Shown piece after piece: positions 16,391 to 48,260 of a DNA stretch of 64,000 nucleotides. Numbering within the stretch: position 1 is the first letter of the stretch; every line of letters starts with the position of its first letter. The stretch comes from Camelus dromedarius (taxonomy: Eukaryota), in NCBI RefSeq assembly GCF_036321535.1, contig NC_087436.1, forward strand, positions 52,826,001-52,890,000. The letters run 5' to 3'. The translations under genes and the position numbers were made by a program. The notes under the pieces are model-generated. The model searched no databases, had not been told where the DNA came from, and saw only the letters and a list, made by a program, of their open reading frames with translations.

Positions 16391-16549
16391 TCTTAATACT
16401 TCAACCTTTTCCCTTTTGTTGATAATATTCACAGCCTTTTAATTTTTGCCCATAAAAGCCTTTCTGTAAGACAAAAAAAAATGCATACAATAAAATACCA
16501 TAGAAACTTAATAGAGCAGAAAATTGAAATGTGGAGAGATGAAAACAAG

Positions 16550-16555
16550 TTTATT
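16550..16555 (-). promoter_or_regulatory. Candidate polyadenylation signal of the Sel1-repeat gene
   Basis: AATAAA on the minus strand about 400 nt after the stop; a second one at 16131-16136. Confidence 0.4.
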
Positions 16556-16956
16556 TTAAGCAGAATATCACATGATGAAGCTAATGATGAGTTTAGTTCC
16601 TTCACAGGGGATCTGTGGGTGCCAACTCTCACATCCAAGAAGCCAGATCTCTGGTGTGACAGGTTTCTTCCTTCTTTCCCTCCCACCACTTCAGAGAATG
16701 CTTACTGGCTTGAAACTTAGCAGTAACGAAATCCAAAGAAAATACTCCTCCATCCAGAAGAGGTCAAACTCGGGTCTCAGGAAAACATGTAAACGACACC
16801 TTGCATAAAGGACTTTGAACAGCCGATTGAAGGCGCAGCAGCGTATAAAACTAACTAAAAGCCACTTCCACTGACAGTTCCACAAAGCAGTGCAGGACCA
16901 CAATGGACAAGTGAGAGTCACATTTTCTATTCCAGAAAGAGTATGCAGGATACACA

Positions 16957-17089
16957 TTAGTGTTTATAAAAACTCCCCGTTCTTTTAGTTGGCAAGAGCT
17001 TGCTTTTTGTCCCGATAACATTCTCCAGAAGTTCCTGGGCTTCTTGGATCCCCTGTCTTGCAGCAACATTAAGGAGCATCTCTACGTCC
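16957..17089 (-). CDS. Exon 5, coding part: end of Sel1 repeat 2, capping helix and stop
   Basis: Acceptor taactgcctttcctAG. Encodes (G)DVEMLLNVAARQGIQEAQELLENVIGTKSKLLPTKRTGSFYKH; TAA at 16959-16957. Confidence 0.88.
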
Positions 17090-20000
17090 CTAGGAAAGGC
17101 AGTTACTTAGTAGTGTAAAGAAAGAGTACACCAAAAGAACCTGCATGTCCAAGTGTTTAGGCTAAGGGCCAGGTTAACACCTGTTTAGACTCATTCTAAG
17201 GTACTAAGGGAAACACATGCCATTTCACCTGGGTTTCATCATGAATGTCTTCATAATAAAATCAAAGCTACCCTAAGAAATTGTATTACAACATCAGAGT
17301 CCAGCTGGACACTTTGCCTTATTTAGGAAAGGTTTTCCTAGCCAAGACTCTTAGGTAATGTCTGACACACTCCTCTCTTGCAAGCAAATTTTGTATTTTG
17401 GTTTGGGGTTGGTAACTGGAGAGGGGCTCCATTCAACCTACCATCAGTCAGTTGTAAAACTGCCAACCAGCAGCTGTAAAAGAGAACATATTGACTGCAC
17501 CATTTTGAGTTGGTGGTTTCAAAATGGTCATTTCAAAGTTTCATTACCAAGTAACGCATGCAACCAATAGCCCTGAGTATTATACCAATTTCCAAGACTC
17601 ACCCCATCTTCCAGCCCTTCACCGAGACTCCCTCTTTCTGAACCTTGCCTCCTCCTCAGCTTGAAGGAGATTAAGGGATGGAGTTGCGGGAGGGGGTTGT
17701 ACACATTACTTGGCAATGGAGTATATGTCAGTTACATTGCTTAAAAAAACAAGCTGCAGGTTTAGTGGTTTATTTGATGGGCCCTATCAAATGTCTCTGA
17801 CTCAAAATAGCTGCATAAAAATATCACAAACTATGAACTATTCGAAAACATTAAGAAAAACTTCCCCAGAGAAAATAGAAGTATTTCTCCTGATAACTGT
17901 GAGTAATTAGAAGAGGATTAGTCCAACAAACACAAGGGGAATTTGTACCCAAGGAGGGCTGTCCATCTTCATATTCTTACTTGTTCCATGCTGTTTATAA
18001 GAAAATGCTCTAAGGCTGTAAAGATGGTACTCCAGGGAGCTGAGAAATTCACAGGAGACCGTAAGGATCATGGAATAACCTGGCCTTTCATCTCGTGCTT
18101 GTGGACCTTAAGAATGTATTCAGTGGGCTTTATGCATGTGCATGAATCTTGGATTCATTTGCTTTGTACTTTTATTATAACTCATAGCCATATAAGTAGA
18201 TAAAAAGGCAAGTGTGGGAAGTGAACTATATATAAAATGCTTTTGTCTGTCAATTGCAGGTAACATATGGGGGCAGGTTTAGAAAGAATGTCATCTCAGC
18301 TGGAAGGGAGAAGACAGCTAGTTTCCTTACCCTACTGCCATGGATCCAGTCATGTTTTTCAGTTTTCCTACTGCAAGGTTAAAGGAAGCATGAGGATGGT
18401 CTTGCTGGGAGGCTTGTCTGAAAAAGAAAGGAAAAGGAAAGGGGAGTGGTGATGGGGTTGGGGAGGAGTATGCAGTAAAAAACAAGGAAATAATCTTATG
18501 AAGATGCACCCCCTTAATAAAACCAAGGGCAGTGCCAATACAGATATGTAACCATTACTGGAAACCATTACTTCCATCATACCATATATCTGGACAAATG
18601 TTAATAGGCCTCTTTCATTAAGAACAATGTATCTTACTTGAAACAAATACAATACTTTTTAAAAAACTGATGTTGTTAGAATACTTAAATCACTTATTTG
18701 TTCCAAACCTGTTCATCAGCTTTTCCAAATATTAGAATAATTTTTCTCTCCAAAAGATACAGGAAATCAGAGGACCATCTGGGAATGTTAAGAATTCAGT
18801 AACATGTAGCTGATTCTTAAGCACTATTTCCAGTTGCTGAACTATAAATGTAATATGCCAGAACTTTACAACAGAACTTTCCCCAAAGATGGAAATGTTC
18901 TATGTCTGTGCTGCCCAATACAGTAGCCACTAGCCACATGGGGCTACTGAACACTTGAAATGCAGATAGTGCAACTGATGAACTGAATTTTTCATTGTAA
19001 TTCATTTAAATTTAAATGACCACATGTGGCTAATGGCCATCATGTCAGACAGTACAAACTATATAATTATTGCCTTGTTACTTTGCAGTTCTTTTCCTAT
19101 TAATTGTAATTGGGGGAAAAAAAGTTGCCCAAAATACAAAAAAAATGTACAAAGTTTACTATTTTTAACACACAAACATTCTGAAAAGTGAGTAGGAACA
19201 TAACCATATCCAGTAGAAAAGCAGGCAGACTGCATGAATAGGCTTTTTGCAGGAAAAAGAAAAAATTTAAATTACAATAGATATTTAGAAAAGAAAGCTT
19301 CACAACTGATCAAGAAAAAAATGGAATGAGGCACTTTTTGTTGTTATTTGAGTTGGCAAATACAACAAATAATTAAAAATAATATTCATAAGCTGATGAA
19401 CATTTATACTAGAGTGAAATTGGACAATTTTCAGGATAGTTTGGTAACACATATCAAAAGCTTTAGAAATGATGCTTGTCTGACCTGGTAATTCCATTTT
19501 TAGTGATTTTTTTGTTTAGTAAAGAAATAATCAGATGTGCAAAAAGATGTATATGAAAGGCTCTTCCCAGCAGCAGTCTGTGATAGTAAGAAACCAGAAA
19601 AAGGACTAAGCAAAAACAGTGAAATATTCAAGGAAACTAAGGTATATTATACATACATTAATTGAAAAAAGTCTACAAGAATCCTCACTGAAATGTCAAA
19701 AGTATTTTTTACTGTGCTATGATTCAGGTGATTTTTGGTGTTTTCAATATTTTCCTCATTAGGCATAAGTTATTTTATAAGTCATAAACTATAAAATCTA
19801 TTTTTAAAATACACTGGGGGGGGGATCTTGCCTTTGTGATGCTTTTCCCACCCCATTTCTGACAGTGGAATCCATCACTGAAAGATGGAACAATTTTCAA
19901 ACTGCTCTTTAATTGTAAGGTCCCATGTAAGGAAGGCCCGGCTTACAAATTACTGTTTTGGGCAACACTTCCAAAACTTTAATGCAGAATCTTGTTAAAA

Positions 20001-23000
20001 TGAGGATTCTGCTTCAGTAGGGCCAGGGTAGGGCCTCAGGTGCTGCATTTCTAACCAGTGCCCACCTGGGGAAGCCAGTGCCACAGGTGTGTGGCCTCCA
20101 CTCAGCAGCAAGGGCTTCAGCTAGGTACACGTGAGCACAAACCTCATGTAGCCACTCTGGAGCTGTGTCATTCCATCCATGATTCTCAAAGGTACTTCTT
20201 CTGCTGGCAGGTGATCTTGATCAGAATATCCATTTCAAACTTCATATTGAAGTGTGTTACTAAAACAGTTTCCTCTGCTGGTTTGCGTTCACTTTATAAA
20301 CCAGTGTAGACTTCTAGAGTAGTGGTTGGACCTGGCTGCACAGCACCGTCACCTGAGGAGCTTTTTCTGCACAATTCAGCCGACCTGGAGCTGGGCGTTA
20401 GCATGTTTCAAGAGCTCCCCAGGGGATTCTGCTGTGTAGCCAAGTGTGTCACCCACTGGTCTAGCGAGAAAAATGGGAACATCTGAGAAGGATGGTCTCG
20501 TCAGTACACGGGCAATGCCAAAACCATAGCCGTGCTCACTTTTCTCGCAGATAACCAGACACTTCCCAGAATCATGAGACTCTGTATCAGCATTACCTAA
20601 CAGAAATATAATGCAAGCTGTGTGTAATTTTAAATTTCCTGATAGCCACACTAGAAGTTTTAAAAGAAGTAACTAAAATTAATTTAAGTAATATATCTTA
20701 TTTAACTCTATATATCCAACACATAATTATATCCACCATTCAACATGAAATCAATATAAAGAATTCTTAGTGAGATATTTTATATTCCTTCCTTCTTAGG
20801 AAATCTTGGAAATTCAGTATGTACTTTACATGCACAGCACATCTGCATTCAGACTAGTCACATTTCCAGTGCTCAGTGGCCTATGTGACTAGTGGCTGGC
20901 ATATTGGACAATATAGCTTTAGAGAGCACTGCAGCAAAATGCCACCTTGGGGGTTTCCACTTTTGATTAAATTGAGACTTCATGAACCCAAAGCCAGCTC
21001 TCTATATTAAGTGACTTTGGCTTTCGACCTAACTTGTCCTTGCTTTCTGCCACAGTCTCCATGTAGAATGGAGTTTCTAACATCTCAGAGCTTATTTATT
21101 TCCATTCTCTAACATTTGGAGTGTCAGACAGAGTGTTCAAGTGTATGTTTCCAAAGTTATTCCTACTTTCTGAAACTGCAGATATAATATGAACTATTTT
21201 TCTGTGAGGACTCAACAAGCCGATGCTACACAATCAGAGCCACAGAAGCTGCCTGGGGAAAATTTTGCACACTGAATACAAATCAGTTGAATAAAATTTA
21301 GAGCAAAAGATGGAATAAATGAAAGGTAAGATGTATTTCTACTTTTAAATTTCATGTGAATATGTCTCTTATGATCACAGGAGCTCAAAACTTTAATAAA
21401 CAAGGTAATGCTAATACAGAGCACTGTTAAATTATTGATGTTCTGAATCTTGACCTAGACGGTACATATTCTCCAAATTAGTTCCTTTAAAGCTAATCTA
21501 TTGTTTGCTTACACTGTGTAGACTTCTTTTATTTTTAATTTTTACTTTTTGGAGCAGAAGAAGGTTTATTGCAGGGCTAAGCAAGAAGAATGGGTGGCTC
21601 ATGCTTGAAAACCCCAAACTCCTAGGCTTCTTTTAAATGCATCAGCCACATCACCTGCATCACTACTCTTACCTCACCATCAAGTGGAAAAAGTAAAGAA
21701 GTTACCAAGACTTTAATATTAAGAAACTTTACCTTATTTTTATTATAGGGGAAAAGCACCAAAATCATAAGATTCTGTATTTCAGCACTTTCTCAAGTGA
21801 TAGCTCTAGAGTTTTGCTTTTGGCAAATGTCGTCTTTCTTACCTAAACCAATGCATTGCCATCTCTTCATCCTTCACCACACCAGCTCCTGGGAAAAACC
21901 AAAAAGTATCATAGAAAAAAAGGGACTCAGTTAACTGCTTGATACTAAAATCTTCTATGAACCTATAGATACAGAAACCTAACCAGTAAACCCCTCCCTG
22001 TCCCTTTCAACTAGTAGAATGAGCACCAGAGGAACAAAGAAGTTACCTTTCAAGTATCTCTGGCCAACAATATGCTGAGCACTGGGGTACCCAAAGTGAG
22101 CATAAAGATGTGCCACATGGAAATGGAAGCTCTGGGAAAACAGCCAGATGTAAAGCAGAGAAATGACGCTTCCCATTATGACCAAGAGCTGCAAAAAAAA
22201 AAAAGAGAGAGAGAAGAAGACAAATAGTGTGAGGATATACTTCAGATATGGTTCAGATGTAGGAGGAATGAGTATATTCTATGAGAAAGGCATTTCAGGA
22301 TGAGATGCATGTGATTTAAAGATGAAGGGTGTCCTTTATAGGTCTCTGTTGTATAGGGGAAAAATGTACTGTCACTAGTCTTTTAACTTATTTTCAGTCA
22401 TTCTGACATGTACTTTTTCTGAGTGGTGCAATATAACTGGATTGGGTAATTAACTAGGATTGCAAGCTGACCAATAAGATCTTGGCTGTTTATAAAAGGG
22501 AAAAAATGGAGACAGAAACAAAAGAGGGTGTAGAAAATAGAATATGTTTGCCATTTCGGCAGAAATATGGGGGCAGTTCTAAAATGGGAGGGAGGTCCTG
22601 CCCTGCTCTGCCACGGTCTGGAGAACCCATAGCCCTGGTCCATTTTTGCAATACTCTCAGCTGATTCTACAGAAGTGAAAGACCGTCAGATGGTACTTCC
22701 AGCTTCCTCCCTAAAGAGGTCTGGGTGAGCCAGCGGGCCTTCAGAAGATGAAGGAAGTTGGGAACTCACAGTTTGCTTAGGGCTGCCATAGCAAAATATG
22801 ACAAACCAGGTGGCTTACACAACAGAATTTGATTTCCTCCGCATCTGTAGCTGGATATTCCAGATCAAGGGGTTAGCAGGGCTGGTTTCTTCTTTCCCTT
22901 GGACTTATAGATGACTGTCTTCTCCCTGTCACTTCTCATCATTTGTTCTCTGCACATCTGTCTCCAAATTTCCTCTTCTAATAAGGACACAAATCATGTT

Positions 23001-24145
23001 GAATTAAGGCCCACCTTAATTATCTTATTTTAGCTTAATTACCTCTGTAAAGATCCTGTCTCCAAATACAGTCACATTCTGAGGTACTTGGGGTTAGGAT
23101 TCTGACATATGAGTTTAGGAGGGACAAAACTCAACCCACATCGGTAGCCTAGGCTGGCAGTAGGGGGATAGATTCTGAAAGAACTGGTGCATTAGCAGGA
23201 GCTTTGACATCAATATTCTCTAGCAGCTCTAACATGCCACTCAGCTCTCCTCAAGAAGCCCTCCTAAGTGAAGTCCTTTCCCATCAGTAGCTTATACACC
23301 AGGAATGGATTGATGCCCAAACAAGTTTATATTGTCCAACAACTGAATCAGCATGGCCATTACTGGTTCCAGAAACGTGGCAAACACTTTCTGAGATGTC
23401 AGTTCAGCAGGTATCCATGCCTGACAGGGAACTACATCCTGTGGGGCAGACTTGAAATGCAGCAAGACCACAAAGTGCTCCAGCAGCACGGACGGTGCAG
23501 GGGCCCCAGGCCATCTCCTGGCCACACTCAGCTGAGTAGGAAGGAGCTTATACATTGAGAAAAAAAAGTACAGTGGGGTTGACAACTTCCCTTTCAGATG
23601 TGATTCTGCTTCTAAGAGAAGATAAGAGTGCAGCTTCAAACCTGAAACCCCAGCTCTCCAGTGCTGCCGTGAAAGGTAAAGTTCTATCACTGATTCCAAG
23701 ACCAAGAGAGGAGCTTGGAAACAGACTTTTTAACTTCACTCTTTCAGCCAAACAAACCCATCAGGGATTGAAGACTTGAAGAACAGAAGGGGTTTTGCAG
23801 ACTTTAATTTAGAATCACTGTAACTATGAAACAAAGATCATTAAATATTTTTATTGTCACATTGAAGATACAAGAGAGAAGAAAATAGCATAATCCAATA
23901 TGGACAAAATTATAAGTTATAAATAGAAGTTATAACTTATAATTTTGTCCATATTAATTAATATAAGTTATATTAATTAATATAAGTTATAACTTCATAC
24001 TTACAAGTTATATATTATTATGTATATTATATATTATTCTAAATAATTTCCATAATATAATTTCAACTTTGACAACATGTCTCTTCTGTCATTAGGGAGT
24101 TGTTGGTCATTCACAAGAACGTATGGCAAAGTCTTCGGGTCAACC

Positions 24146-24179
<34 letters not shown>

Positions 24180-26856
24180 TGTCTTAAGGGGCATTTTAAA
24201 TTTTTTATCCTCTTATTAGGGCATCCAAAATCATCTCTATTGATTCTGCTTCATGAACAGATGATCCTGCACATATTTCTATATGTTACAAGGTTTCACA
24301 GCAGATGAGTGTCTGTTTTGAAACTCCTCAAATCCTTTTTGAAATTATTTAATTTATTCAGTATTTATTTTGAATGTGTCTGACACTGTTCTCATCATTG
24401 TGAATAAAAGAGTGAACAAAAGAAGCAAAATTCACTGGCCTATTGTAGCTTATATTATATTTAGGGTGGAAAATGAAGGAACAGACAATAAATTAAAAGT
24501 AAGTAAAATGTGATGTATTGGATGGTAATAAGTGCACAGGGAAAGAACAGAAGGAGACTAGGGAATGATGTAAGGCAGGGCGTACAGGTTTTAAAAGGAT
24601 GGATGAAAATGGTGAGCCAAGAAAAATAGAAAAGGGATGTGTGGTTGCAGCTCTGTCTAATGGTGTGAACCCCAATGAGCATCACAGGATGTCCAGAAAG
24701 ATTTGAGAGAAGTATATCAGCAAAAAATACTGCCAGCTTTAACCCAAAGGGACAGAGATGATACAAAATGAAAAGAGGTCACTGGACCCCCAGTTTCCTA
24801 CTTGCAAGATGCAGGCTAAGAAAACTACTCACTTGCAAACACATGCTACCTGTCATGAAGAAAGGAAGGATGAATCAGAGAGTGGAACCAAGAGCACAGA
24901 GGATGGACCCAAAAGCCATGGAGAATCATCCCCAGACCTCAACCAAGGAACTTCCAGTCTTTGCCTGGCTAGACCTCAGAACTGCTTTGGACTGAGAACT
25001 CCTTTGTGGCTCCCATGTTTCCCCCTTTTTGAACTGAAATGTTTATGGGAGTTTTCCATGCCCGTCCCACCCATATTGGATGTGTGGAGTCAGATGCCTT
25101 GTCTCTATCGTCTCATAGGTCACAGATAGAAACTGTATTCAGGGAGTTGTGCTCAAGGAACAATATATGGAGAGCCTCATTCACACCAGCGATTTTCAGA
25201 GCCACCAGAAGCTAGGAGAGAAGCATGGAGTGGATTCTCCCTTAGAGCCCCTGGATATAACCAAACCTACCGTTGACTTAATCTCAGACTTCTGGCCTCC
25301 TGAACTGTAAGAGAATACATTTCTGTTGTTTTCAGCCACTCAGTTTGTGGCAAACCTTTATTACGGCTGCCCTGGGAAATAAAGACACCCTCCACAACAA
25401 AGGCTAGGCAGGCTTACTGTTTGTTATAAAAGATTTGGATTCCCCCAAATCAGGGTTCCTATGCTGTAATTTGACCTGCAGCACGTGCAGTGTAACCTGA
25501 CTTTACTGCCATCACCCCGTGGAAACTGGTGCAAATACTGATACTCTGGATACTGCTATCGCTGTAAAAAACAGCCCTTTATCTCTGACCCAACAGCCTC
25601 ATGGCTTTTGCCAGCATCCATGAAACTGTGGAAGGTTGACTTGTTATCTTACACACAGGTAAAATCTCAGACTCTATAGATCTTCACAGGGCCCTCAGAA
25701 CTAACTGATGAATTGATGCAAAGAGTAAGATAAATAGAAAAATCAAGGATAATCTCAAGGTGCATGACCTGAGCAACAGGGTGAATAGCAGTTCTATTTC
25801 CTGAGATGGGGCAGAGTGTGGGGGAAAGAGGCATCTCGTATCTTCATATTCTGTGCTTTGATTATTCCCTGAACTTACTGAAAGCTCTGTATAGTTAAAT
25901 CAGCACCCGCAGTGCACTTAACTGTTCTAACACTCAGCTTACATTTCTCTATGTTGTCTCCCAAACATGACGCTTGGACATTTGTTAAAAATCAAAAGCA
26001 ACATATCTACATCATATCTATTAAAATCTATCTCATAGCTATTCCATTTAGAAAAAAAAAAACAAGGTTTGTCGTCTGCAATTTTATTTGGGTGCACTGC
26101 TGGCACATATGGTCACTAATTCCTTGTCTTAAGCATTTACAACCCATGTTGTAATACCACTCTTTCTGATTACTCTGATCACTAAATATCATGATCAATA
26201 AATCAGAAATTCACTTAAAGTTGCTGTGGTCAAGTGGCTTTGATTTTTTTACCTTTATCAATGGTGTTAGTTGCCAATGAGTTTGCTGCTTTAAGATCCA
26301 GTAAGGACAGATCATGTCACATTAAAAAATTGGGCTATTAAAACTCCAGCTATAGGAGTTCTGTGAATTATCAAATATCTTATCTGGATATTCCCTCTCC
26401 TTCTCATCTCCCCTTCCTTTTCCTATCTTTTCTTCCCTGCCCTCCCATCCTTTCCCACCTTGGAGATGTCAGTGAGTCCAGAGTCCAAGCAAGACCAGTG
26501 GTAAGGGGGTGGGCGCAGAGGAGGCTACTGAATGGTTGGAAAATTGATTGCAATGAGAAAATTGGTTAAAATGAGGAAACATTGTAAGCATTGAGCATAT
26601 AAGGAAATATATTGAAGATAACAAAAACCACATTTCTTACTGTCAAAGAGGAATTTACAACATATAAACAGCCTGCTGGAAAGAATTCCAAGGCATAGGA
26701 TTGAACTTAAAATTTCAACTTGAAATCAAGTTTAAAACACATACACACACACACAGTTATAATTGTATGTGTATGTGTACACACATGTATATGCCTATAT
26801 ATATATATAGTTGTAAAGCTGTATAGTTGTGTATATATATAGTTGTAATGTATATG

Positions 26857-26902
<46 letters not shown>

Positions 26903-28222
26903 TAAATTTCTAGCTCTCTTCACTGAAAAGGCCTGGATGCAGTGACATCTCAGTAGTAATGATCACATTGAACATCCACATTGAGCACTCAGATATTTAT
27001 TTCTAAATACTATCCTCCCCTGAAGAAACCAAGTTTCCTTTAAGAAATGGCTAATTCCAGGGCTGGAATATGGGATTAATAAAATATGGAGTGTATCGTT
27101 ATCCCTGAAAATAATGTTTAGCAAATGATGGGCACATGTCAAAAGGATACAGAAGACAGCTTGAAGAAGACAGAAGAAGGAGTCCCACTGGCCACATCTG
27201 GGACCATTTCTGCATCACAACAAATAATGAGATGATCAGATTTAAAACCACTAACTAAAATTGGAATCCATGAGTCCATCCTGAAGCAAACAAATAGGGA
27301 GAAGGGAAATCTCTTCCTTACAGGAGAATGCCGACTAATAAATGTAAAAAGAGTGATGCAAATAAGGAGTCACCATTTGGCAGCCCTTAGTGTGATGGTT
27401 GACTGAGGTAGAAGTTACAAACAAATACTAAGGCTGATGTGGGAAACCTGATGAAGAACAGACTATTAGTGTAGAATCTTAGAATCCCTGCATACAAATG
27501 TGACTTGATTATTAAAGGAAAATTGAGGACCTTACAGTGGAAATCAGTAGACACAAATGTAAGATCAAAAGGTAGAACAGATCAACATTGCATGGCTTCT
27601 GATATTAGGCACTAAGACGACCATGGTATCGTGTCTGTGATGTTCCTGCTGAGAATGCAACACCAGACATTTCTGGTCACGGGGAAACATCAGACATACC
27701 CAGGTTTAGGTTCATCCTGTAAAATAAAAGTCACATATTCTTTACAAATCAGGGTCTTGAGAGATAGTGCAGTACCAAAACCGTTCCAGATTGAAGGAAT
27801 CCAAAGAGACATGACCATTAAATGTAATGCAAGTTCCTAGACAAAATACTAGACCAAAAAGGGAAAAGAAACATGGCAGGGGGCAGTTGGCAGAATATAC
27901 ATGAAGTTTGTAGACTTCCTGGCCATGTTCAGTCAATGTTGATTTTCTCATTGGCTGAACTGTCTGTTGTTACAGTAGCAGAGTATTCCAGTTTCGGAGA
28001 CATATAACTGGAGTATTTAGGAAGTGGTGGGGCATCAATTCAATGGAGGAGAAAGAGAGAGGAGAGAGAACAAATACAGTGAAGAGTTATCTGACCACTC
28101 ACCCAGACAATGAGCTTTTGTACTATTCTGACAACATTTCTGTAGATTTGAAACTAATCCCCCCCAAATTTTTTTAAACATAGAATAAATCAGAATTCTT
28201 TAAAGATATGTATATACATATG

Positions 28223-28256
<34 letters not shown>

Positions 28257-31200
28257 GATGGATAAATAGATAGAAAAGAAAGAAAGAGAGAGAGAATTGG
28301 TTTATTAATCTCATCTGCAAGCTTTTTCTGTTTCTAGATGTAAAATTCATTTGGATCAAAAGCGTATGCAGGTTAACCTATAGAGAACACCTACGCCATT
28401 TCCCACAATCTGCATACCCAAATGGCAAGATTGATAAATCAAAGTCAAACTGTGGCTTTGTCACTGTCATCTGTAGTTTTATGCCATCAATTCAAAGCAA
28501 TGAGTCTATGTCTTTCCCCCAATAAATCTATGACCATTTCAATTTTTTTCCATTTTAAGAAGTCTCCATTTTCTTCTTGTAGGCACATAAATGCTACTTT
28601 CTTGTATTTCCCCTTTATTGATTGACACTTGAATTTTTTCACATGTCCCTCTTTTATCTGGGTTCATATGGAAGTAAAATTATAACTGTGGTAAGTACTA
28701 GAGGGAAACTGTAAAATAAGGAGGTTCATTTCTTCATTTTTTTGTATCAAAGAGCAAGGATTAGTTTTGGTAAGATGAGGCTGGAAAAGGAGACAGAGGG
28801 CAAATTCTTAATCTACAAAATGTACCGGTTATCTCTAGTTTGTCCTCAGCTTCCATTAAGGGAATCCAGTTTATGACAATCAAGTATTTACTGAGAAATG
28901 TAAAATACACAAAAGCGTAAAATACATTGGTAATGTATGAAATGAAAATAGCTTCAATTACAAAAAACACGTAACAACCTGAGATAAGAGTTTCGCCTTT
29001 GCCTTTGCAGTGCCACCGTGGCTGCTGGTCCAACTAGTCCAACTCGACAGTCATGCTCGTGAGCCACTAAAAGGCTGAAATCTAACAGCATATTGCTCAG
29101 CTTTATGGAAGGAAACGGGACAGGAAATTCAGTGAGTACAGTTCCCGCGTCTCCTCGGAGGCCCAGAGCCACCCCTCACCCGCAGTGTGTCGGGCCGCCA
29201 CAGAGCAGGTGTGTGTGGTCACCAGGCCACATCGCCCTCCCTTTCCCACCTTTTAAACTGTTCCAGTCACATCAGCCTAAAGTCTGCCGCCCAAAGCACA
29301 GAACCCCCTGCCCAGGTGCAGCTGCACAGACCAAGGGTAAATAAGGCAAGACAGACACAACAGTCCACATTTTGTGTTAACTCTGCCATGGCCGAGGAAA
29401 TGGTGCTGTGAGAAGACATCCCTCGGCGGGCCTGGATCAGCCCTAACCTGCTGTTAACCCCTTACTCACATCCTACTACCTTTCACATCCTCGACTCTAG
29501 TAAGGAACCAATCAGCAGGTAAATGGGAGGGAAAAGATACTCTGGAGTTAAAAGACAAGATCCTGGGGACGTGCAGCTTCTCCAATGAAGTGTGTGCCTC
29601 CTTCTCTCCTGGCTGCTGCCCTGTCTCCTACGTGATCCTATGTATTCACCCTTCCTGAGAGTGTTCAGCCCGGGAGTAATGGGAGGTGTTCTGCACAGAC
29701 TTCCTGAGTGACAGATGTGGTCTTCCTGTTGGAAGAGGAAGCTGATAACAGCGTCTGTAACCCACGTGTGTGTCTGTGTGGCAGAGAAGCCTGGTCCTGG
29801 TTAACATCGGGGGAGTGAAAGCTTAGGGGAACATACCAGGAATGTTGAAAACCCCTGTTAGCTAAAAGAGAAATCCAACAGCCAGTTACAGGAGCATTCA
29901 TTCATGAGTGCCCCTTCAATCATAATTGTACAGAAAGAAGGCTAAAAACATAAGTCCAAACTAGGATGAAATTTGGCATTTTCTTCTCCTATCAATTAAG
30001 TAATTCTAGTGACCGTCGTATTTTTAAAATTGGTTCAGTAGTAAAAAGGACATGTCTGTATTTCATATTTTTCCAGCCTCATCTTACCAAAACCAGCATG
30101 TTTGTATTTTGTCTGTTGGGTACTTTTACAAGGGAGTGACACTGATACTTGAGACCAGTTTAATGTTAGGGACAAGGTAGAGATTTCATACAAGGGATTT
30201 ATTTATTGTTCTCTCCCTTGGGGATTGAAATCATTTCCCTATCTTAAACTATGTGGGTGCATTTCTGGACTATTTAATAGGTATTTAGTCAGGCAGCTTC
30301 AAAGGTACTTTCATGTAAGGCAATTTCATATTTTAATTTCATATTTGAATGATGAAAAGGGTAATCCCATATCCGTTGCCTGTTTAATTACCAGCCACTA
30401 ATGCTTGGCCACTAGTTCTTAAAGAGCAGTTCGTTTTCTGCAAAACTTCAGCTCCTTCCTAATTGTCAGATTCATGGTTAAATATCAAGCAATAAATATA
30501 TAATCATGTATGCTCCCTCCTGAAACCCCATTAAGTTGGCAGGAAACCAATGAGAGAGAGAAGATAGGAAAACAAAAAGATAAAAGAGAATTAGAGTGTC
30601 TTTCCAGGAAATCTGATGTCCAAATAATAGGCATTCCATAAAGAAATAAGAGACTATGAAAAGGAGAAAAGTATGAGTAAGTGATCCAAGAAAATTTCCC
30701 AAATCTGAAATGACAGGAGTTTCCAGACTGAAAGGTCACACTGTGATGAAAGAAGGTGTCTAGCTCTAAGGGAAAGAAAAAAAATTACATAAATACATAA
30801 ATCACTGAGAAACTTCAGAACAGTGGCTACAGAAAAGAAGAATCTAAAAATTTCTGAGGGCAGAGAGGGATGTAACGAAAAGAAAAGAAAAGAGGAGAGG
30901 AGACAAAAAAGGGAAGAAAGTAAATAAGAAAAGAAGGTCACATACCAAGAAGCATGAATCACAGTACACCAGATGTCTCAGCCCCAAAGCTGTTACCTGA
31001 AGCACACTAGAACAATCTCTTCAAATTTTAAGAATAAATTATTTGAAACCTAGAATTCTACACCAAGTCTAAATATAAAACAAGTGTGATGGAAGAATTA
31101 GGACCCTTTCATTTTCAGATATTCAGAGGTCTGGAAGTCTACCTCTCATGCAACCACGTAGGCAGCTGCTAGAGGATGTGCTCTCCCAGAACAGGAGAGT

Positions 31201-33947
31201 AAGCCCAGAAGGAGGATGTCTCAGGGGCTGAGAATGAAAGCTCCAGGCCAGGAGGAAGGCGGAGGGAATTTCCAGGATGATGTGATGAGAAATCCCAGGA
31301 AGGCCACTGAGAGGCAGGTGGAGAGGTCAAGGTGGAGCAGCAGAATGGAAAGTGTGTCTCCAGGAGGATGGGGAAACTGAGAGGTTATCCAAAGTGTTTG
31401 ACTATATTCAGAGGAAGGTAATACTTTGTGAAGACGCACAGGATGAATTAGACATGGGCATATGGAGAACTAAGCCAAAAAGGGAAAAAAAGATGGAATT
31501 ATAACTACCTAGACAACAAAGTTGTGGGAGAAAGGAATTATAATCATGATATTGATGGAGTTCAGGACAGGGTACCCCAAAATATGGCACCTGGGCATAT
31601 TGAATATTTTAAGCTAAAAAAGTCTGAGAAAACAGAAGAAGCAGGACAGTCTCTTTGACGTTCCCCGGCCCTTCTCTGCTGAAGCAGGTGATGAGACCCC
31701 CATGTGGGAGGCGCCCTCCCTATGCCTGCAGGAAAGGAGCATCCTTGTCTCTGAGACCCAGAATCCAAGTGAACAGGTCGGCTCAGTTTCCCCCAGTTAC
31801 TACACTTACCCCCACCCTCTGTCCTCTCATGCTTCCCCACCACTGTCTACTCTTCATCAGACCCAGCATCCAAACACTCAGGTTTAACCATTTCTTCAGG
31901 TCTTTATTTCCTTTTGAAGGCTCCCATGTCAGGTAACATGTAATACATTTGCATGCTTTTTCTCCTATTAGTCTGTCTTTGTGAGTTCAATTTTCAGACT
32001 CAACCAAGGACTTGAAAAGGGTCAAGGAAAAGTTTTTCTCCCCCTACAATAGACTACAGGGGTCAGCTGTGATAAATATTTAAATGGCTGTAATAATGAA
32101 AACTGAATATTGATTTAGTCAAAGATGAAGCTGTAGTTATATTAGAAAGAAGAAAGGGTAACTTTGTGTTTGAGGGGCAGGAGGGCGGGGGTTAGGAACA
32201 GGAATTGATCAATAGTGTATAAATTGAACAAAACAGCCTTAAATGACTGTTATTTAGAAATACAGCGGTGACGCCAGAAGAAAATCTACAAGTTGAAAGT
32301 GGCTTCTGAAGAGCAATAATCAGAAGGAAGCGGGAGAGGAGCGCTGTTTTTGAGCTATAAGCCTCATAAAAAGTTGATTTTTTATGAACCTGTGTTTCTG
32401 TATCGATTTGAAAATAAAAATTGAGTTTAAAAAGAAGAAAAATATCACTTTATCTTCAGAGACTCCAATTTAATTTATCAGTAATGACAAATGAATATTT
32501 CTTTGATGGGTTGACCTAGGAAAATAAGTATTGAACAAGTTTAGACGCTTGTGACTTCCTACTGGCACATGCTAAGGATATAACGAGTCACAGTTAGCAA
32601 TACTATTAGAATACTTTCCGAGATACGACAGTCCCATCTTGAATACCATCCCTGTGTAACTGTTCTGCCAAAATTAAACGGTGCTGCTAGCTACAGAGTC
32701 CTACTTGCACCCAGCAGCCCACCTGCCGGCTGCTACATGGACCAATTCAGGTTTGAGCAGAGTGTTTCATCGTTCATTGTCATCGTGGCATGTTTGTCAC
32801 AATTGTTCCGATTTAATCTCACATTTATAGCAATGAGGACTAACACCGTGCTGGCATTTAGTTAACTCAGCTATAAATGCCAAGAGCCATGGATATTTTG
32901 ATGAGAACTTTCTGCTGTACCATTCTGGTCAGTTTTAAATAGTGGCAAATCATAGGTATTTTGGTGACAATATCAATTTTAAAGTGCTGAGAACTCAAAA
33001 GATCTACTGCTGAATTATTAACAATTGGTATTTTATACAGACTAGATACAAGACAAGATAGTATTTTATACAGACAATATAAATTTATCAGCACTGTGCA
33101 CAAGAGGGAGATGTGTAGTTTCTCCCAGTCTTTTTTTTTTCATCAGTGAATTTTCATGTGGCTGGTGATAATTCACCCAAAGCAGATAGGAAAGCTTGGA
33201 TGTAACAACAAAAAACAAAGAGTAATCTGTTTCTTTTCACAGTCCAGGCCACCCATACCATTCAATCTGTACAAGTAAATCACAGCCATTTTACATTTTC
33301 ATTTGGGTTCAGCTGTAATTACTCAGCAATGAATTAATGAAATAGGCCAATTAAGGGAGGACAGCTTCCTAGGAATCATCTACTTATCTTGTCGTTAGAG
33401 AAAAGAGCCCTCTCCCGAGGCAGGATCAGGTCCACTCCTGGTATATCCAGCAAGTTCTCAGTGATCTGGACTGATCCATAGAAGTCGTTTTCAGGTCAGA
33501 ATCAAAGACTAGATTGTAAGTCAATGGAAAACTGAACTTCTTACTTATGTTTCAACTAATGGATAGAAGAGAGAGTTTAAAATCTTCCACATAATATCTC
33601 TGGACAATACACAAGATATGATAACAGTGGTTGTGTCTGACAAGGAGGCTTTGGGGAGTGGGTTAGGAGTCACGGGTAGGAGCCAGTGCTAGGGAGTTGT
33701 AGGCTGCCTCTTACTACGCAATTCTTGAATTTTGCACCATATGCATATGGTGTAAAAGTTTTTTTTTTAAACTAATTTTTAAAAACATGATATGTGAGGG
33801 TATATCTATAGTCTTATAATCTTCATATAAATTACAATAGTTTCTGTTCAAGAATATTCCATACAACTGAGTCCTACATTAACATATTCCATAGCTTTTC
33901 TTCTTGTGAGTACATTACAGGTTCTCCCTAACTTCCTTTGGTTTCTG

Positions 33948-33978
<31 letters not shown>

Positions 33979-35626
33979 TTCACAGCTGGGAGCTGAAGTT
34001 TTATGCTCTCTAAACATCCTTCTGGTTTCTTGCTTTAGGGATTATCAAGTGTGCAATGTCTATCAACTAAGACAAAAGAAATGCAGAGAGGCAGAGTGGT
34101 AGATTTAAATGGAGCTGTGAGGAGTAATACAAATCGAGACCTGTATCATTAAAGATCCTGAAGTTGTATTTCTATATGTGTGTGTGTGTGTGTGTACATA
34201 TACATATATATATATATATATATATATCTGTGTATATATAATTGAATCACTATGCTGTACAGAAACTAATACAACATTGTAAAATAGCTAAAATTCATTT
34301 TTTTTAAAAAAAAGGAAAAAAGTTTAAGTAAAATTTTGCACTTATTTAAAGTTCATTCCACATGGCCCTGATCTCTAAACTTATATAAAAATACAAAATA
34401 TTCATGAACGATCTTGATTATAATGAAATTAAAAATAAAAGCAACAGCCCTCCATATCCAGCAGTATGTTATGAGTAAACTGACCGAAGGTCTTGCTAAA
34501 AAGAAATAAAAACAGTGGATAAACACAAAAGTAAAAATAATAAAAAAAAAATAAAGTTGTATTTCTAGCTACAGTAGATGTCTAAAATAAGAATGAATTT
34601 GCACTTTTTCATCTATTCATAAATACGTTTTCTTTGCTTTCCCATCACAAAACTTCTGGCATTCCCTCCTCCAACACCTCTGCAGCCCCCATCACTTTTA
34701 TTTACCTGTGGTTAAATAATCCACTAATACCTCAGGGTAACAGTATGTCAAAATATTAGTGAGCTGAGAACACTAATTGCAAGCAAGTCTAATAGTAGAT
34801 TTTTATTCTTCTCACAGTTCCAATTTTTTTTAAGCTCTAAATTTTCGGTACCAAACAAATTTTCAAGATAGAAGTTAACTGAATTTTTATACATTAACTG
34901 AAATTTATACTAGTCCTCTAATTTTCCAGCTAAGTTTGTATAAATTAGACTGTACATATTTGATTTCTAGCAGCTGACTAAAAAGTGGAAAAATGTAAAG
35001 CTAGCTCTCCGATATCAAATAATCAACTAAATTTTAATGAGTTTTTGTTTTGCGAGTTCTTTATGTGTTTGCTTGCTTTCAAATAAATTAACAGGTTAAT
35101 TCAGGAAGTCCAAATTTGTGTGTACATATAAATTTTGAAAATTTTTTGATGCATATAATCTTGAATAAATCTATCTTCAATATATTTTCCAAGAAAACTG
35201 AAATATTTCATCTATACACTCTTAAACCTGGAGCATTGTGGAAAAACACAGTGTGGTCTCTGTTTTATGTAACTGTCATTTACGATTGACAGCGTTTCTC
35301 CCTCGTTTCCGGTTCGGTCCTGTGTTCTGGAATTGAGCCCTTACCTCCCATGTGTGCCACGAATCCCGAGTGTGCACCTTATTCTTCCGGGGCAGATTTG
35401 CTCCCAAGGCATACATATCACTCGTCTGGGGTCTTCTTTTCTGCTTCTGAGACAGCAAAGCCTTCACCTCTTTCTTCCCCAGTTGGCGTCTCTGTTCTGC
35501 CTGCGCGCTGGCGGGAGTGGTTGGGTAGTGGACGTCTGTTTGCCGTGTTTGGCCCCCTGAGGGCTTACCGTCCAGGGGCCCCTGCTTCTCCGCCCCTACC
35601 TTCTGCGGATGCCTCTTCCCGTTCAT
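16957..35626 (-). CDS. Spliced gene for an uncharacterised single-pass membrane protein with two Sel1-like repeats (~229 aa); join(35626..35345,22188..22047,21888..21843,18417..18331,17089..16957)
   Basis: Manual splicing gives one open frame: MNGKRHPQ...RDSWHTWE|LLVIMGSVISLLYIWLFSQSFHFHVAHLYAHFGYPSAQHIVGQRYLK-G-AGVVKDEEMAMHWF-R-QASQQDHPHASFNLAVGKLKNMTGSMAV-G-DVEMLLNVAARQGIQEAQELLENVIGTKSKLLPTKRTGSFYKH*. All introns GT-AG, phases 0/1/2/2. The Sel1 consensus (AQxxxGxxYxxGxGVxKDxxxAxxWFxxA) runs across the junctions. The start codon is uncertain. Confidence 0.85.
18331..18417 (-). CDS. Exon 4 (87 nt): end of Sel1 repeat 1 and start of repeat 2
   Basis: Acceptor ccttttcctttctttttcAG; donor AGG|gtaagg. 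Encodes (R)QASQQDHPHASFNLAVGKLKNMTGSMAV(G), phase 2 to 2. Confidence 0.9.
18855..19055. mobile_element. MER3-like hAT element; a related MER33/MER3-like copy lies at ~20590-20915
   Basis: gatggaaatgttctatgtctgtgctgcccaatacagtagccactagccacatg. Confidence 0.75.
21843..21888 (-). CDS. Exon 3 (46 nt): core of Sel1 repeat 1
   Basis: Acceptor tttttggtttttcccAG; donor TAG|gtaaga. Encodes (G)AGVVKDEEMAMHWF(R), phase 1 to 2. Confidence 0.9.
22047..22188 (-). CDS. Exon 2 (142 nt): predicted TM helix plus start of Sel1 repeat 1
   Basis: Strong acceptor tctctc(t)n-gcAG; donor AAG|gtaact. Encodes LLVIMGSVISLLYIWLFSQSFHFHVAHLYAHFGYPSAQHIVGQRYLK+G, phase 0 to 1. Confidence 0.9.
22770..23140 (-). mobile_element. 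MLT1B/C-like MaLR LTR
   Basis: agggctgccatagcaaaatatgacaaaccaggtggctta...ccaaatacagtcacattctgaggtac. Confidence 0.8.
23897..23988. repeat. Perfect 26-bp inverted repeat (7-nt spacer) followed by a 19-bp direct duplication
   Basis: aatatggacaaaattataagttataa (23897-23922) / ttataacttataattttgtccatatt (23930-23955); atattaattaatataagtt twice (23951-23988). Confidence 0.95.
24640..25690 (+). mobile_element. Cluster of MaLR internal sequence, MLT1 LTR part and another LTR fragment
   Basis: gccaccagaagctagga...cagacttctggcctcctgaactgtaagagaatacatttctgttgttt (MLT1 3' half) flanked by other LTR-like sequence. Confidence 0.55.
26480..28170 (+). mobile_element. Old L1 3' region (L1MC4/5-like)
   Basis: Similar to 55150-56450 (e.g. 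cacatgtcaaaaggatacag...cccactggccacatctggga). Confidence 0.55.
30470..32440 (+). mobile_element. HAL1 / L1 ORF1-like relic interrupted by an LTR
   Basis: A-rich ORF1-like tracts (ccaaataataggcattccataa, gaaaattttcccaaatctgaa, aaacctagaattctacaccaag). Confidence 0.55.
31553..32048 (+). mobile_element. Solo ERV LTR (MER34-like)
   Basis: TG...CA ends (tgatggagttcaggacagggtaccccaaaatatggcacc ... ttctccccctaca); near-TSD atat/atag. Confidence 0.7.
34175..34553 (+). mobile_element. Short L1 3' end carrying a ~200-nt 3' transduction
   Basis: L1 3'UTR (tgaatcactatgctgtac...ttgtaaa) and A tract, then non-L1 sequence, AATAAA at 34505-34510 and a second A-rich tail. A 14-bp TSD aagttgtatttcta lies at 34161-34174 and 34554-34567. 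Confidence 0.75.
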
Positions 35627-35696
35627 CCTCCCTCCAGGCCCCAGCTTCACTGGGTAGCTGGTTTTTCTCCTCTGATTTATGCCTGGGGTAAAGCAG
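35345..35696 (-). CDS. Exon 1 of the Sel1-repeat gene (352 nt): basic low-complexity N-terminus ending ...HTWE
   Basis: Acceptor ttctctggttcttatctttaaaagacAG before 35696; donor GAG|gtaagg after 35345 in phase 0, matching exon 2. Locally CpG-rich and open throughout (ORF track 35276..35800). First in-frame ATG inside the exon is at 35626 (aggATGa). Confidence 0.7.
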
Positions 35697-46107: not shown

Positions 46108-48260
46108 TACCAGAAGGAGAAGAAAGGGAAAAGGACAGAAGAAATATTTGAAATAGCAATGACTGAGAATTTCTCTTAATTAATGTCACATACCAAACCA
46201 CAGATCCGGGAATCTCAGAGAACACCAAGAAGAATAACTGCCCCCCAAAAATGATAGTTAGGCATATCGCCTTCAGACTACAGAAAATCAAAGATAAAGA
46301 CAAAATTCTGAGAGAAGCCAGAGGGGGAAAACCACTTACTTACAGAGGAGAAGAGATAAGAATTACAGCCAACTGCTCCACAGCAACCATGCAAGAAAGA
46401 AGAGAGTGGAGTAAAACATTTAAAGGGCAGAGAAGAAATCCCACCAAGCTCAAATTCTCTACCTGAATAATTATTCCTCAAAGTGAAGGAGAAAGAAAGA
46501 CTTCTCAGACAAACAAAAATTGAGGGAATTTGTTGCCATTAGGCCTGGTTTACAAGAAATTTTAAAATAAGTTCTTTAGAGAGAAGGAAAATGATATAGG
46601 TTAGAAACTCTTATCTACATGAAGAAAAGAAGAGCACCAGGAAAAGAATAAGGCAAGATTAAATAAATACTCTTATTTTTCTTATTCTTATGTGATCTAA
46701 CAGATAATAGCTTTTATCAAAATAATTAGCAATGATGTATTATATATGTATATATACATATATATGTTTATATATGAGTGAAATGAATGACAGCAATGAT
46801 CCAAGGGATGGGAGGGAGGGGTTGGGATTGTTTTGCTATTATAAGGTATTCACATTACACATAAGCTGTACAGTGTTATTCAAAAGTGAACTGAGATTAG
46901 TTGTAAGTGTATACTGTAAACTCTACAGTAACCATAAAAATATTGAAAAAAGAACAACTGATATGCTAAGAAAGGAGAGAAAATGGAATGATATAAAATG
47001 CTCAATTAAAACCACAAAAGAAAGAGAAGAGTGGAAGACAAAATTGGAGCTAAGAAGGGCAACAAATAGAAAATAGTAACAAATATGGTAGATACAAATA
47101 AAACTATATCAATAATTATTTTAAACATCTATGTTCTAAATGCTTAAATTAATAGACAGTTTTGTCAGAATAGATCAGAAAAACAAGACCCAACTATACG
47201 TTGTCTACAAGAAAGCCACTTTAAACATAGAAACACATATAGAATAAAAGTAAATGAGTGGAGAAAGATATACCATTCTAACACTAATCAAAAGAAAGTG
47301 GGAGTAGCTATATTAATTTCAGACAAAGCAGAATTTAGACCAAGGAAAGTTATGAGAGGTAAAAAAAGGGCATTACATAATGAAAAAGGGGTCAATTCTC
47401 AAGAAGCTGTAACAATCCTTAATGTGTATGTGCCTAACAACAACACACCAAAAGATATAAGGCAAAAAGTAATAGAACTGCAAGGAGAAATAGATGAATC
47501 CACAACTATAGTTGGAGACTTCAAGACCCTTCTATCAGAAATGGACAGATCCACCAGGCAAAAATCAGTAATGCCATAGTACTCAGCAATATTGCCATGA
47601 TTTATAGATATAATGAACATCTATAGACTACTTCATTCAACAACAGCAGAATACACATTCATTCTTCTCAAGCTCACATGAACCATTCACCAAGGCAGAT
47701 CACATTATGAGCCATAAAACACACCTTAACAAATTTAAAAGAATAGAAATCACAAAAAGTTTGCCCACAGACAATGGAATATAAATAGATCTCAGTAACA
47801 GAAAGGTATCTGGAAAATCCCTCCAATTATGTTGCGATTAAACAACACACTTCTAAACAACACATAGGTCAAAGAAGAAATCTCAAGAGGAATTCAAAAA
47901 TGTTTTGAAATAAATGAAAAACAAGACTTAGCAAAACTTGTGGGAGGTAGCAAAAGTAGTGCTTAGAGGGCAATTTATAGCATTAAAATACATACATTAG
48001 AAAAAAGAAAGATCAAAAATCAATCATTCAAGCCTCCATCTTTGAAAACTAGAAAAAAAAAAAAAAGGAAGCAAATTAAACCCAAAGTAAGTAGAAGAAA
48101 AGAAATACTAAAAATTCCAGCATACATACATAAAATTGAAAACAGGGAATCAAAGGGAAAAAAATCAATGAAACTAAAAGTTGGCCCTTTGAAAAGATCC
48201 ATGATATCAATAAACCTCTAGCTAGAATAAGAAAAAGAGAAAGAAGACACAAATTACTAA

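Follow-up and report, generated by a model that had tools for sequence, protein, structure and literature searches.

A five-exon dromedary gene encodes a member of an unstudied animal family of Sel1-like-repeat proteins with a predicted membrane anchor

Introduction

Does a 19 kb locus on dromedary chromosome contig NC_087436.1 carry a working gene for a small Sel1-like-repeat protein, and if so, to which family does its product belong and what might it do? A sequence-only reading of the surrounding 64,000 nucleotides (the whole stretch that was analysed, here called the window) had proposed such a gene in five segments, and had suggested that its product might be an uncharacterised family member, poorly annotated or lost in human and mouse. 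We examined the gene structure, predicted fold, family range and probable topology of the product, and weighed competing explanations of its function.

Results

An intact five-exon gene on the minus strand

The locus is a real, intact five-exon protein-coding gene of Camelus dromedarius on the minus strand. All five exon segments lie where the sequence-only reading had placed them (35696..35345, 22188..22047, 21888..21843, 18417..18331 and 17089..16957), and the GT-AG splicing it proposed was borne out, as every internal border has the form AG...GT. The four donors resemble the consensus (GAG|gtaagg, AAG|gtaact, TAG|gtaaga and AGG|gtaagg), and the 20 bases preceding each of the four acceptors are 65-100% pyrimidine. 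The phases agree, and the joined segments give a single frame of 229 amino acids open from ATG to TAA. Coding does not start at 35696 as had been supposed: the ATG is at 35626 and 35696 merely falls within the open frame, with the nearest in-frame stop upstream of this ATG at 35812. The features of the gene are as follows.

35345..35626, minus strand: exon 1, coding part; residues 1-94, a basic and poorly conserved N-terminal region; ATG at 35626-35624
22047..22188, minus strand: exon 2; residues 95-141 plus 1 nt, with the hydrophobic transmembrane stretch LLVIMGSVISLLYIWLFSQSF (about 22126-22188)
21843..21888, minus strand: exon 3; 46 nt that encode the loop and helix B of Sel1 repeat 1 (GAGVVKDEEMAMHWFR)
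18331..18417, minus strand: exon 4; 87 nt that complete repeat 1 and encode helix A of repeat 2, with an N-M-T sequon
16957..17089, minus strand: exon 5, coding part; encodes helix B of repeat 2, then the capping helix QEAQELLENV and the C-terminal tail; stop codon TAA at 16959-16957
16530..16956, minus strand: probable 3' UTR, from sequence alone; AATAAA at 16555-16550, 401 nt past the stop
12652..12749, minus strand: alternative terminal exon, predicted in an older camelid isoform (P0003, 158 aa)

The 229-aa open reading frame is identical, letter for letter, to a database protein (P0001) that RefSeq names "uncharacterized protein LOC116156332 [Camelus dromedarius]". Dozens of other animals have a prediction of this same exon-joined protein, which places the gene far beyond chance, as had been argued from the sequence. 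Exon 2, where a His-rich helix (FHFHVAHLYAH) and the first helix, A, of Sel1 repeat 1 are also encoded, matched 42 proteins when translated and searched alone. The introns flanking exon 3 are read through, at the same positions, in a cat model (P0044) and a bird model (P0076). For the alternative terminal exon, tblastn gave 100% identity over P0003 residues 128-158, with AG before the exon and a stop at its end.

The gene is single-copy, in that its protein matches no other locus in the dromedary genome. Exon 1 maps to C1:52861342-52861626, and the other Sel1 matches lie on other contigs (C3, C5 and C22) or 52 Mb away (C1:104.9 Mb). As no Sel1 match lies nearby, we rejected the possibility that the segments belong to SEL1L3, LRP2BP or a further Sel1 gene. 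The neighbouring open reading frames are of the DDIT4 family on one side and H2A.Z and DnaJ on the other; set against what we take to be the human gene order at 4q23-q24, this context suggests synteny with that region. A Pfam scan of the 46 window open reading frames of at least 95 aa found only an L1 ORF1 fragment, with no second gene seen. Bacterial contamination or recent transfer is ruled out by the introns, the vertebrate genomic context and a species-like tree. A fusion with a mitochondrial carrier, as in an elephant-seal model (P0022), is ruled out likewise, as no such sequence matched the window.

The start codon and the state of the camelid locus

The start methionine of other amniotes sits at residue 54, where the dromedary has GTG (35467-35465). 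Since camelids lack this start codon, the true N-terminus is uncertain, and further in-frame ATGs are available at residues 1 and 71. The loss could indicate a decaying camelid locus, where the predicted expression or translation of the open reading frame has ceased. Exon 1 shows only a weak CpG signal (observed/expected 0.55-0.64), and the alpaca prediction is altered at near-invariant sites (HPH to HAH, and Trp to Gln in a helix), which could reflect either relaxed constraint or sequence errors. However, no stop interrupts the five-exon reading frame in the dromedary, the alpaca or the Bactrian camel, whether wild or domestic. Only 3 of 229 residues distinguish the dromedary from the other camels, none of the four splice-site pairs is disrupted, and the camel branch in the family tree is short (0.027). 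We therefore consider decay very improbable.

Evidence of transcription comes from relatives. Cattle records exist (NP_001077136.1 / AAI34779.1, LOC511175), of accession types that are presumably cDNA-based, and a 1,225-nt Logan contig encodes a full 170-aa bovid protein (P0164). This contig is too short to hold introns if these are sized as in camel. In a look-up of sequencing runs, some of the 3' exon and UTR was present in 19 of the 24 runs listed. Only one is recorded as RNA, with a share of 0.30 of the sampled last-exon and 3' UTR words, and the rest may be DNA, so we do not count the look-up as evidence of expression.

A compact two-repeat Sel1 fold

Pfam Sel1 (PF08238) matched residues 129-164 at 35.0 bits, against a cut-off of 30.7, over profile positions 1-36 of 36, and all five orthologues scanned also passed the cut-off (33.7-45.7 bits). 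Of the two 36-residue repeats that had been described, Pfam calls only the first, but both are present: the second is backed by AlphaFold2 helices at 165-176 and 185-197 with the capping helix after them, and the profile matches to SEL1L and DELE1 span both units. In the AlphaFold2 model, residues from about 87 to 217 are confident, with a mean pLDDT of 88-98 per 10-residue block over 91-210. The predicted order is a transmembrane helix (87-110), a His-rich helix (112-125), the two repeat helix pairs (129-141/149-161 and 165-176/185-197) and the capping helix (201-217), mostly at pLDDT above 90; helices 87-110, 112-125 and 129-141 all exceed that value. The capping helix QEAQELL had likewise been recognised correctly. 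The model thus has the tandem antiparallel helix pairs, about 36 aa per unit and at least two units, that define the Sel1-like-repeat fold.

Foldseek returned 14 PDB matches at E <= 0.001, Sel1-repeat proteins throughout, and a PDB profile search returned 22, also Sel1-repeat proteins. Together, Pfam, AlphaFold2 and Foldseek uphold the description of the product as a Sel1-like-repeat protein with a hydrophobic anchor. The nearest ESM Atlas clusters were eukaryotic Sel1 (scores 0.92-0.95), most commonly from Arthropoda, Chordata and Platyhelminthes, which we treat as a lead only. Homodimer prediction with residues 84-220 gave scores of 0.13 and 0.15, where the mark was 0.32, and neither supports nor opposes self-association.

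An unstudied animal family

The camel gene is the camelid orthologue of an unstudied, vertically inherited animal gene family. Its orthologues, about 120-230 aa long, are present in mammals, sauropsids, amphibians, lungfish, sharks and sturgeon, and among invertebrates in molluscs, an annelid, a brachiopod, a flatworm and barnacles. Over the core (residues 111-217), identity to the camel protein is 85-93% in placentals, 63-71% in sauropsids and 43-52% in molluscs, barnacles, brachiopod, flatworm and annelid. Column conservation reaches 0.74-0.77 in the His-rich helix and repeat 1, compared with 0.42 in the N-terminus. An alignment of 59 sequences has 18 invariant and 19 near-invariant columns, every one of which is kept in the camel protein, as is the family signature of one hydrophobic helix with, immediately after it, HFHV..YA..GY..AQH.VGQRYL.G.GV...AM.WF..A...GHPH..(F/Y)N.A.G. 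A quick maximum-likelihood tree tracks the species tree, with support of 100 for the vertebrate/invertebrate split, 99 for placentals and 89 for mammals, and groups camel with artiodactyls.

No primate, mouse or rat protein was found among the 42, the 81 or the 120 listed of 357 matches; squirrel-family rodents are present among the matches listed. The proposal that the family is poorly annotated or lost stands in part, as human and mouse are absent among the annotated proteins listed, but RefSeq already predicts the dromedary protein and holds a cattle NP_ record. All names in use are automatic: 'uncharacterized protein', 'EsiB-like', 'YbeT-like', 'DELE1-like' (one lungfish orthologue) and, twice, 'SEL1L2...' (pig and cat entries). 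A full-text literature search, which included LOC116156332 and LOC511175, found no paper on the family; such identifiers could sit in supplementary tables, which lie outside that search. These names and this search agree with the earlier view that the family is uncharacterised. A profile search of 1.84 billion representatives gave 174,000 matches at E <= 0.001. The best 150 of these were all long multi-stretch proteins (595-6337 aa), which outscored the short orthologues, and the search therefore does not inform the family range.

Topology and candidate function

The product combines a variable basic N-terminal region, one predicted transmembrane helix and a compact alpha-solenoid directly after it. 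The 15 residues that precede the helix contain 2-6 Lys/Arg in most sequences, and those that follow contain 0-1; some bird sequences lack this charge bias. An N-x-S/T sequon in an exposed loop of repeat 2 is present in 34 of 36 vertebrate sequences. It is missing in both sharks and in all 23 invertebrates, and glycosylation is thus not essential to the family. All 23 invertebrate sequences carry a C-terminal C-x4-C, which vertebrates lack and which would suit a disulfide outside the cytoplasm. From these sequence features we infer a type II (N-in, C-out) membrane protein, whose Sel1 domain would lie in the secretory-pathway lumen or outside the cell.

By analogy with other Sel1-repeat proteins, the domain may then act as a membrane-tethered binding module, with family-specific polar and His residues, invariant or nearly so (H116, H118, Q132, H133, Q137, R138, H164 and N170), as candidate contacts for a conserved partner that would be held or regulated, possibly in a pH- or metal-ion-dependent manner. 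The best explanation, which we judge probable, is an intact single-copy gene of an animal family whose product is a type II membrane protein carrying a tethered Sel1 binding module.

Two other explanations are each distinctly less plausible. The protein may instead be a soluble, secreted or luminal Sel1 protein whose hydrophobic stretch serves, in place of a stable anchor, as a signal sequence that is cleaved or N-terminal, at any rate in the short isoforms. Many models of 117-136 aa start at a Met inside this stretch, among them the cattle NP_ record (P0019, 126 aa) and two camel models (P0144/P0147, 131 aa), and first exons differ among predicted isoforms (P0002, P0004 and P0153). However, the short models may have missed exon 1, full-length mammal, reptile, bird, amphibian and invertebrate models have 40-90 residues ahead of the hydrophobic segment with the basic flank conserved, and AlphaFold2 gives a continuous 24-residue helix at 87-110, all of which leaves a signal sequence improbable.

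We regard as similarly doubtful a metal-handling membrane protein, in which the His-rich domain, with the invertebrate C-x4-C, mainly binds Zn, Cu or Ni, or senses pH. The 107-residue core holds 5-10 His in vertebrates and 11-17 in invertebrates, H116 and H164 show no variation and H118 and H133 almost none, and the weak fold match COA7 (Foldseek rank 46) is a Sel1 protein with a cofactor-linked role. Against this, no tool matched a known metal-site motif, the Cys pair is missing in vertebrates and H121 and H125 vary. To our knowledge, every Sel1 repeat characterised so far is a protein-binding module.

Comparison with known Sel1-repeat proteins

The top sequence and fold matches are small bacterial Sel1-like-repeat (SLR) proteins (EsiB/c5321 of E. 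coli, LceB and LpnE of Legionella, SLR proteins of Oxalobacter, HcpB/HcpC of Helicobacter and MotX of Vibrio). They fill Foldseek ranks 1-11, and their high PDB profile scores (189 bits for 6ok3, 167 for 4bwr and 144 for 8sxq) are sums over many repeats. This likeness explains the automatic names 'EsiB-like' and 'YbeT-like'. However, the bacterial proteins are secreted or periplasmic and lack a eukaryote-type anchor, whereas the camel gene has four spliceosomal introns, vertical descent and family motifs common to animal sequences only. The similarity is at the repeat level and is not orthology.

Among animal proteins, SEL1L scored highest in the PDB profile search (76 bits, one stretch spanning both repeats), and it was also matched by Foldseek (9og0_C, E 7.6e-4, rmsd 1.7 over 86 columns). 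SEL1L / Hrd3, the ER-luminal adaptor of the HRD1 ERAD ligase, is likewise a membrane-anchored Sel1-like-repeat protein, with luminal repeats such as are predicted here. However, SEL1L has about 794 aa, many repeats in a long multi-cluster ectodomain, extra domains and a C-terminal anchor, whereas family proteins have 165-229 aa, two repeats with flanking helices, an N-terminal anchor and a separate single-copy locus. With 229 aa, one Pfam domain and an anchor N-terminal to the repeats, the camel protein is not a SEL1L / Hrd3 orthologue but resembles it at the repeat level, and nothing we found suggests that it is an ERAD component.

DELE1 (39.8 bits) and LRP2BP (41.3 bits) share the Sel1/TPR-like repeat in the PDB profile search, and EEF2K and COA7 are weak fold matches by Foldseek. 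These four differ from the family protein in size, architecture and probable compartment, as SEL1L2 and SEL1L3 presumably do. The expectation that the protein corresponds to none of the named mammalian Sel1 proteins therefore held, since SEL1L, LRP2BP, DELE1, EEF2K and COA7 match at the repeat level only.

Discussion

What is new here is an unstudied family of the known Sel1-repeat kind; what was already known is its automatic RefSeq predictions. It would be the eighth type of Sel1-repeat protein in mammals. As a smaller practical gain, a family name should replace 'secretory IgA-binding protein EsiB-like', 'YbeT-like' and 'SEL1L2', which are misleading.

A bolder extension of the type II reading, which we consider unlikely, is that this ancient bilaterian gene encodes a His-rich type II mini-Sel1 on which a conserved membrane machine would depend as its luminal or extracellular cofactor, as HRD1 does on SEL1L. 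The gene would have stayed single-copy and strongly constrained for more than 500 million years and been lost in separate events in primates and in mice and rats, with further losses perhaps in teleosts, insects and nematodes. Such losses, if true, would explain how the gene escaped functional study.

Human, mouse, fly, worm and zebrafish supply nearly all functional annotation. None is among the family members listed, and the apparent absence of the family from these species makes it a blind spot in annotation. The family has been kept under strong constraint in livestock, carnivores, birds, reptiles, amphibians, sharks and molluscs, and finding its partner could expose a difference between humans and most other vertebrates in some membrane or luminal process.

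Gene structure and existing annotation

Three exon-bearing regions of the window were read on the minus strand, and the segments of the Sel1-repeat gene LOC116156332 were joined by script from their coordinates, as follows:

35696..35345, minus strand, segment 1
22188..22047, minus strand, segment 2
21888..21843, minus strand, segment 3
18417..18331, minus strand, segment 4
17089..16957, minus strand, segment 5

AG and GT flank every internal exon border; the donor sites are GAG/gtaagg, AAG/gtaact, TAG/gtaaga and AGG/gtaagg, and the 20 bases preceding the acceptors contain 65-100% pyrimidines. The spliced sequence forms one open frame of 229 codons from the ATG at 35626 to the TAA at 16959-16957, with the nearest in-frame stop upstream of the ATG at 35812 and an AATAAA 401 bases beyond the stop codon. 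The intact borders and single frame bear out the sequence-only reading of five GT-AG-spliced segments encoding a stop-free protein of about 229 residues. Its coordinates were exact for all other borders, but 35696 lies upstream of the actual coding start.

Exon 2 translates to 47 residues; in a collection of 5.8 billion proteins this peptide had 43 candidate matches, 42 of them at E <= 0.01. The top match was P0001, the 229-residue "uncharacterized protein LOC116156332 [Camelus dromedarius]". The spliced open reading frame is identical to P0001 at every letter, so our gene model is the same as that of RefSeq. The 90% cluster of P0001 also holds 229-residue predictions from two further camels and a 224-residue alpaca prediction. 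A literature search of article full texts found no paper on this family. The earlier suggestion of an uncharacterised family member is in keeping with this, although RefSeq already predicts the exact protein. The product is an unstudied Sel1-repeat protein that databases already carry in predicted form.

An older predicted camelid isoform, P0003 (158 residues), splices from a weak GT within exon 5 to an alternative downstream exon at 12652-12749 (minus strand), which matches its residues 128-158 at 100%. Within intron 1, the minus strand at 23286-23393 and 32769-32840 weakly matches the N-terminal part of a fused sheep model, P0091 (55% and 75% identity); these may be alternative first exons or spurious.

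Genomic neighbourhood

The window lies at C1:52,826,001-52,890,000. Among 46 window ORFs scanned with Pfam, the only hit was an L1 fragment, an ORF1 RBD-like ORF at 46167-46463 (plus strand; Transposase_22 at 23.6 bits, cut-off 22.4). The flanks, 100 kb per side, gave 169 ORFs of at least 90 residues after complexity filtering, and the longest 60 were scanned. Three flanking ORFs were of note:

C1:52,728,640-52,729,221 (L005:2640-3221), plus strand, RTP801_C ORF, 150.7 bits; two DDIT4 chains its sole PDB matches
C1:52,900,767-52,901,138 (L016:767-1138), plus strand, H2A-type ORF, 77.8 bits to H2A.Z and about 36 to canonical H2A
C1:52,932,798-52,933,154 (L019:2798-3154), plus strand, DnaJ ORF, top PDB match DNAJB12

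The first, about 114 kb past the 3' end of LOC116156332, is probably the DDIT4L orthologue. The matches of the other two, about 39 and 71 kb past its 5' end, suggest H2AZ1 and DNAJB14. Unusually many long ORFs surround the H2A.Z-type ORF in L016. Human DDIT4L, H2AZ1 and DNAJB14 lie close together at 4q23-q24, and a human orthologue or its remains would therefore be expected between DDIT4L and H2AZ1.

Fold and membrane topology

Pfam Sel1 (PF08238) matched residues 129-164 of the spliced peptide at 35.0 bits, above the cut-off of 30.7, confirming the family assignment; five orthologues scanned together with it scored 33.7-45.7 bits. An AlphaFold2 model built with a 59-sequence alignment had a mean pLDDT of 78.2, with 10-residue blocks between 91 and 210 averaging 88-98 and low confidence for residues 1-86. 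Helices were modelled at residues 87-110, 112-125, 129-141, 149-161, 165-176, 185-197 and 201-217, the first containing the hydrophobic stretch LLVIMGSVISLLYIWLFSQSF. The predicted architecture comprises a membrane helix, one additional helix, a pair of Sel1-like units and a final cap, in agreement with the anchor, two repeats and capping helix first proposed.

The 14 PDB matches that Foldseek returned at E <= 0.001 were Sel1-repeat proteins without exception, including Legionella LceB, Oxalobacter proteins, E. coli c5321/EsiB and SEL1L; DELE1, MotX, HcpC, EEF2K and COA7 were placed lower. A profile search of PDB sequences gave 22 matches, again Sel1-repeat proteins, among which SEL1L (76 bits) and DELE1 (39.8 bits) span both repeat units. 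Bacterial profile scores are high because many repeats sum, and likeness to the bacterial proteins behind NCBI pipeline names is at the repeat level only. Further Sel1 matches in the dromedary genome lie on contigs C3, C5 and C22 and at C1:104.9 Mb; these locations rule out that LOC116156332 is the exon set of another Sel1 gene.

In most sequences, the 15 residues ahead of the membrane helix hold 2-6 Lys/Arg, against 0-1 behind it. An N-x-S/T sequon in the repeat 2 loop is present in 34 of 36 vertebrate sequences (both sharks are the exceptions) and in none of 23 invertebrate sequences, and a C-terminal C-x4-C occurs in 23/23 invertebrate and 0/36 vertebrate sequences. These features appear consistent with a type II (N-in/C-out) anchor, which would place the Sel1 domain in the secretory-pathway lumen or outside the cell. 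A rival reading is that short isoforms give rise to a secreted product. In the orthologue alignment (A2), the invertebrate C-x4-C is mostly C-x-x-G-G-C, and a LPYGGKVYLARKKK motif preceding the membrane helix is common to invertebrate members and absent from vertebrates, which for their part gained the repeat 2 sequon.

Distribution and constraint

With residues 95-229 as query, 81 of 108 candidate proteins passed E <= 0.001, and a 23-member profile matched 357 at E <= 1e-10 among 5442, of which the best 120 were listed. Listed orthologues came from the following groups:

Placentals: artiodactyls, whales, carnivores, bat, elephant, manatee, sloth, squirrel-family rodents
Other mammals and sauropsids: marsupials, platypus, birds, crocodilians, turtles, squamates, tuatara
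Amphibians and fishes: caecilians, frogs, one lungfish, two sharks, sturgeons
Invertebrates: many molluscs, one annelid, one brachiopod, one flatworm, barnacles

No primate, mouse, rat, teleost, insect or nematode orthologue was among the matches listed (best 120 of 357 in the profile search), and annotated primate, mouse and rat proteomes apparently lack the family. Several squirrel-family models (P0023, P0028, P0087) are truncated or enter intron sequence past exon 4, unlike the intact Urocitellus model; the broken models may reflect noise in the annotation, or else an early stage of decay in the lineage of rodents and rabbits.

The 59-sequence alignment has 18 invariant and 19 near-invariant columns. 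Over residues 111-217, placental sequences are 85-93% identical to camel, marsupial ones 71-72%, sauropsid ones 63-71% and invertebrate ones 43-52%. The His-rich helix and repeat 1 reach a mean column conservation of 0.74-0.77, whereas the N-terminal region has 0.42. A maximum-likelihood tree of the core (quick-tree supports) splits vertebrates from invertebrates (100) and recovers mammals (89), placentals (99), marsupials, afrotherians, carnivores, birds, turtles and squamates. Searched against its own genome, the protein matches its own exons alone. Taken together, these sequence comparisons show that the gene is single-copy and vertically inherited, with long-term purifying selection acting on its protein sequence.

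Residues H116, H118, Y123, Q132, H133, Q137, R138, M153, F156, H164 and N170 are invariant (H118 and H133 nearly so) beyond the needs of a generic Sel1 consensus, and would make up a putative binding surface. Histidine is unusually abundant in the core: of its 107 residues, 5-10 are His in vertebrates and 11-17 in invertebrates; a chiefly metal-binding role is a further rival reading.

Decay in camelids was also weighed: camelids have GTG (Val) at residue 54 (35465-35467, minus strand), where other amniotes start with Met (MKP..RSQ), and the alpaca prediction is altered at near-invariant sites, but the open frame in each of four camelid species, the undamaged splice sites and the short camel branch in the tree speak against it. 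The camelid frame is open upstream of residue 54, with the ATG of the annotated 229-residue form 53 codons upstream and another Met at residue 71, so the annotated start of the camelid protein is provisional. Of 135 core residues, about 7 differ between alpaca P0143 and P0001, near-invariant ones among them (HPH to HAH and a membrane-helix Trp to Gln); P0143 also has a 5-residue N-terminal deletion.

Transcription and proposed function

The sole RNA-recorded run among the sequencing runs listed has 0.30 of the sampled last-exon and UTR words and does not count as evidence of camelid expression. The cattle cluster includes NP_001077136.1 and AAI34779.1, accession types which we take to stem from sequenced cDNA. 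A 1,225-nt Logan contig codes for the entire 170-residue bovid protein P0164, and therefore derives from a spliced template if bovid introns resemble the camel's 18.7 kb span. These cattle records and the Logan contig count as evidence for transcription of orthologues in relatives of the camel. The intron-read-through models of cat (P0044) and bird (P0076) have introns at the same codons as camel.

A homodimer structure prediction gave no verdict on self-association. The product lacks the defining size, repeat number and anchor position of SEL1L/Hrd3, and we liken it to a miniature SEL1L-type membrane Sel1 adaptor, with function inferred. To our knowledge, every characterised Sel1 repeat is a protein-binding module; because of this, the product is best interpreted as an adaptor tethered to the membrane, which would serve a conserved partner and whose binding may be pH- or metal-dependent.
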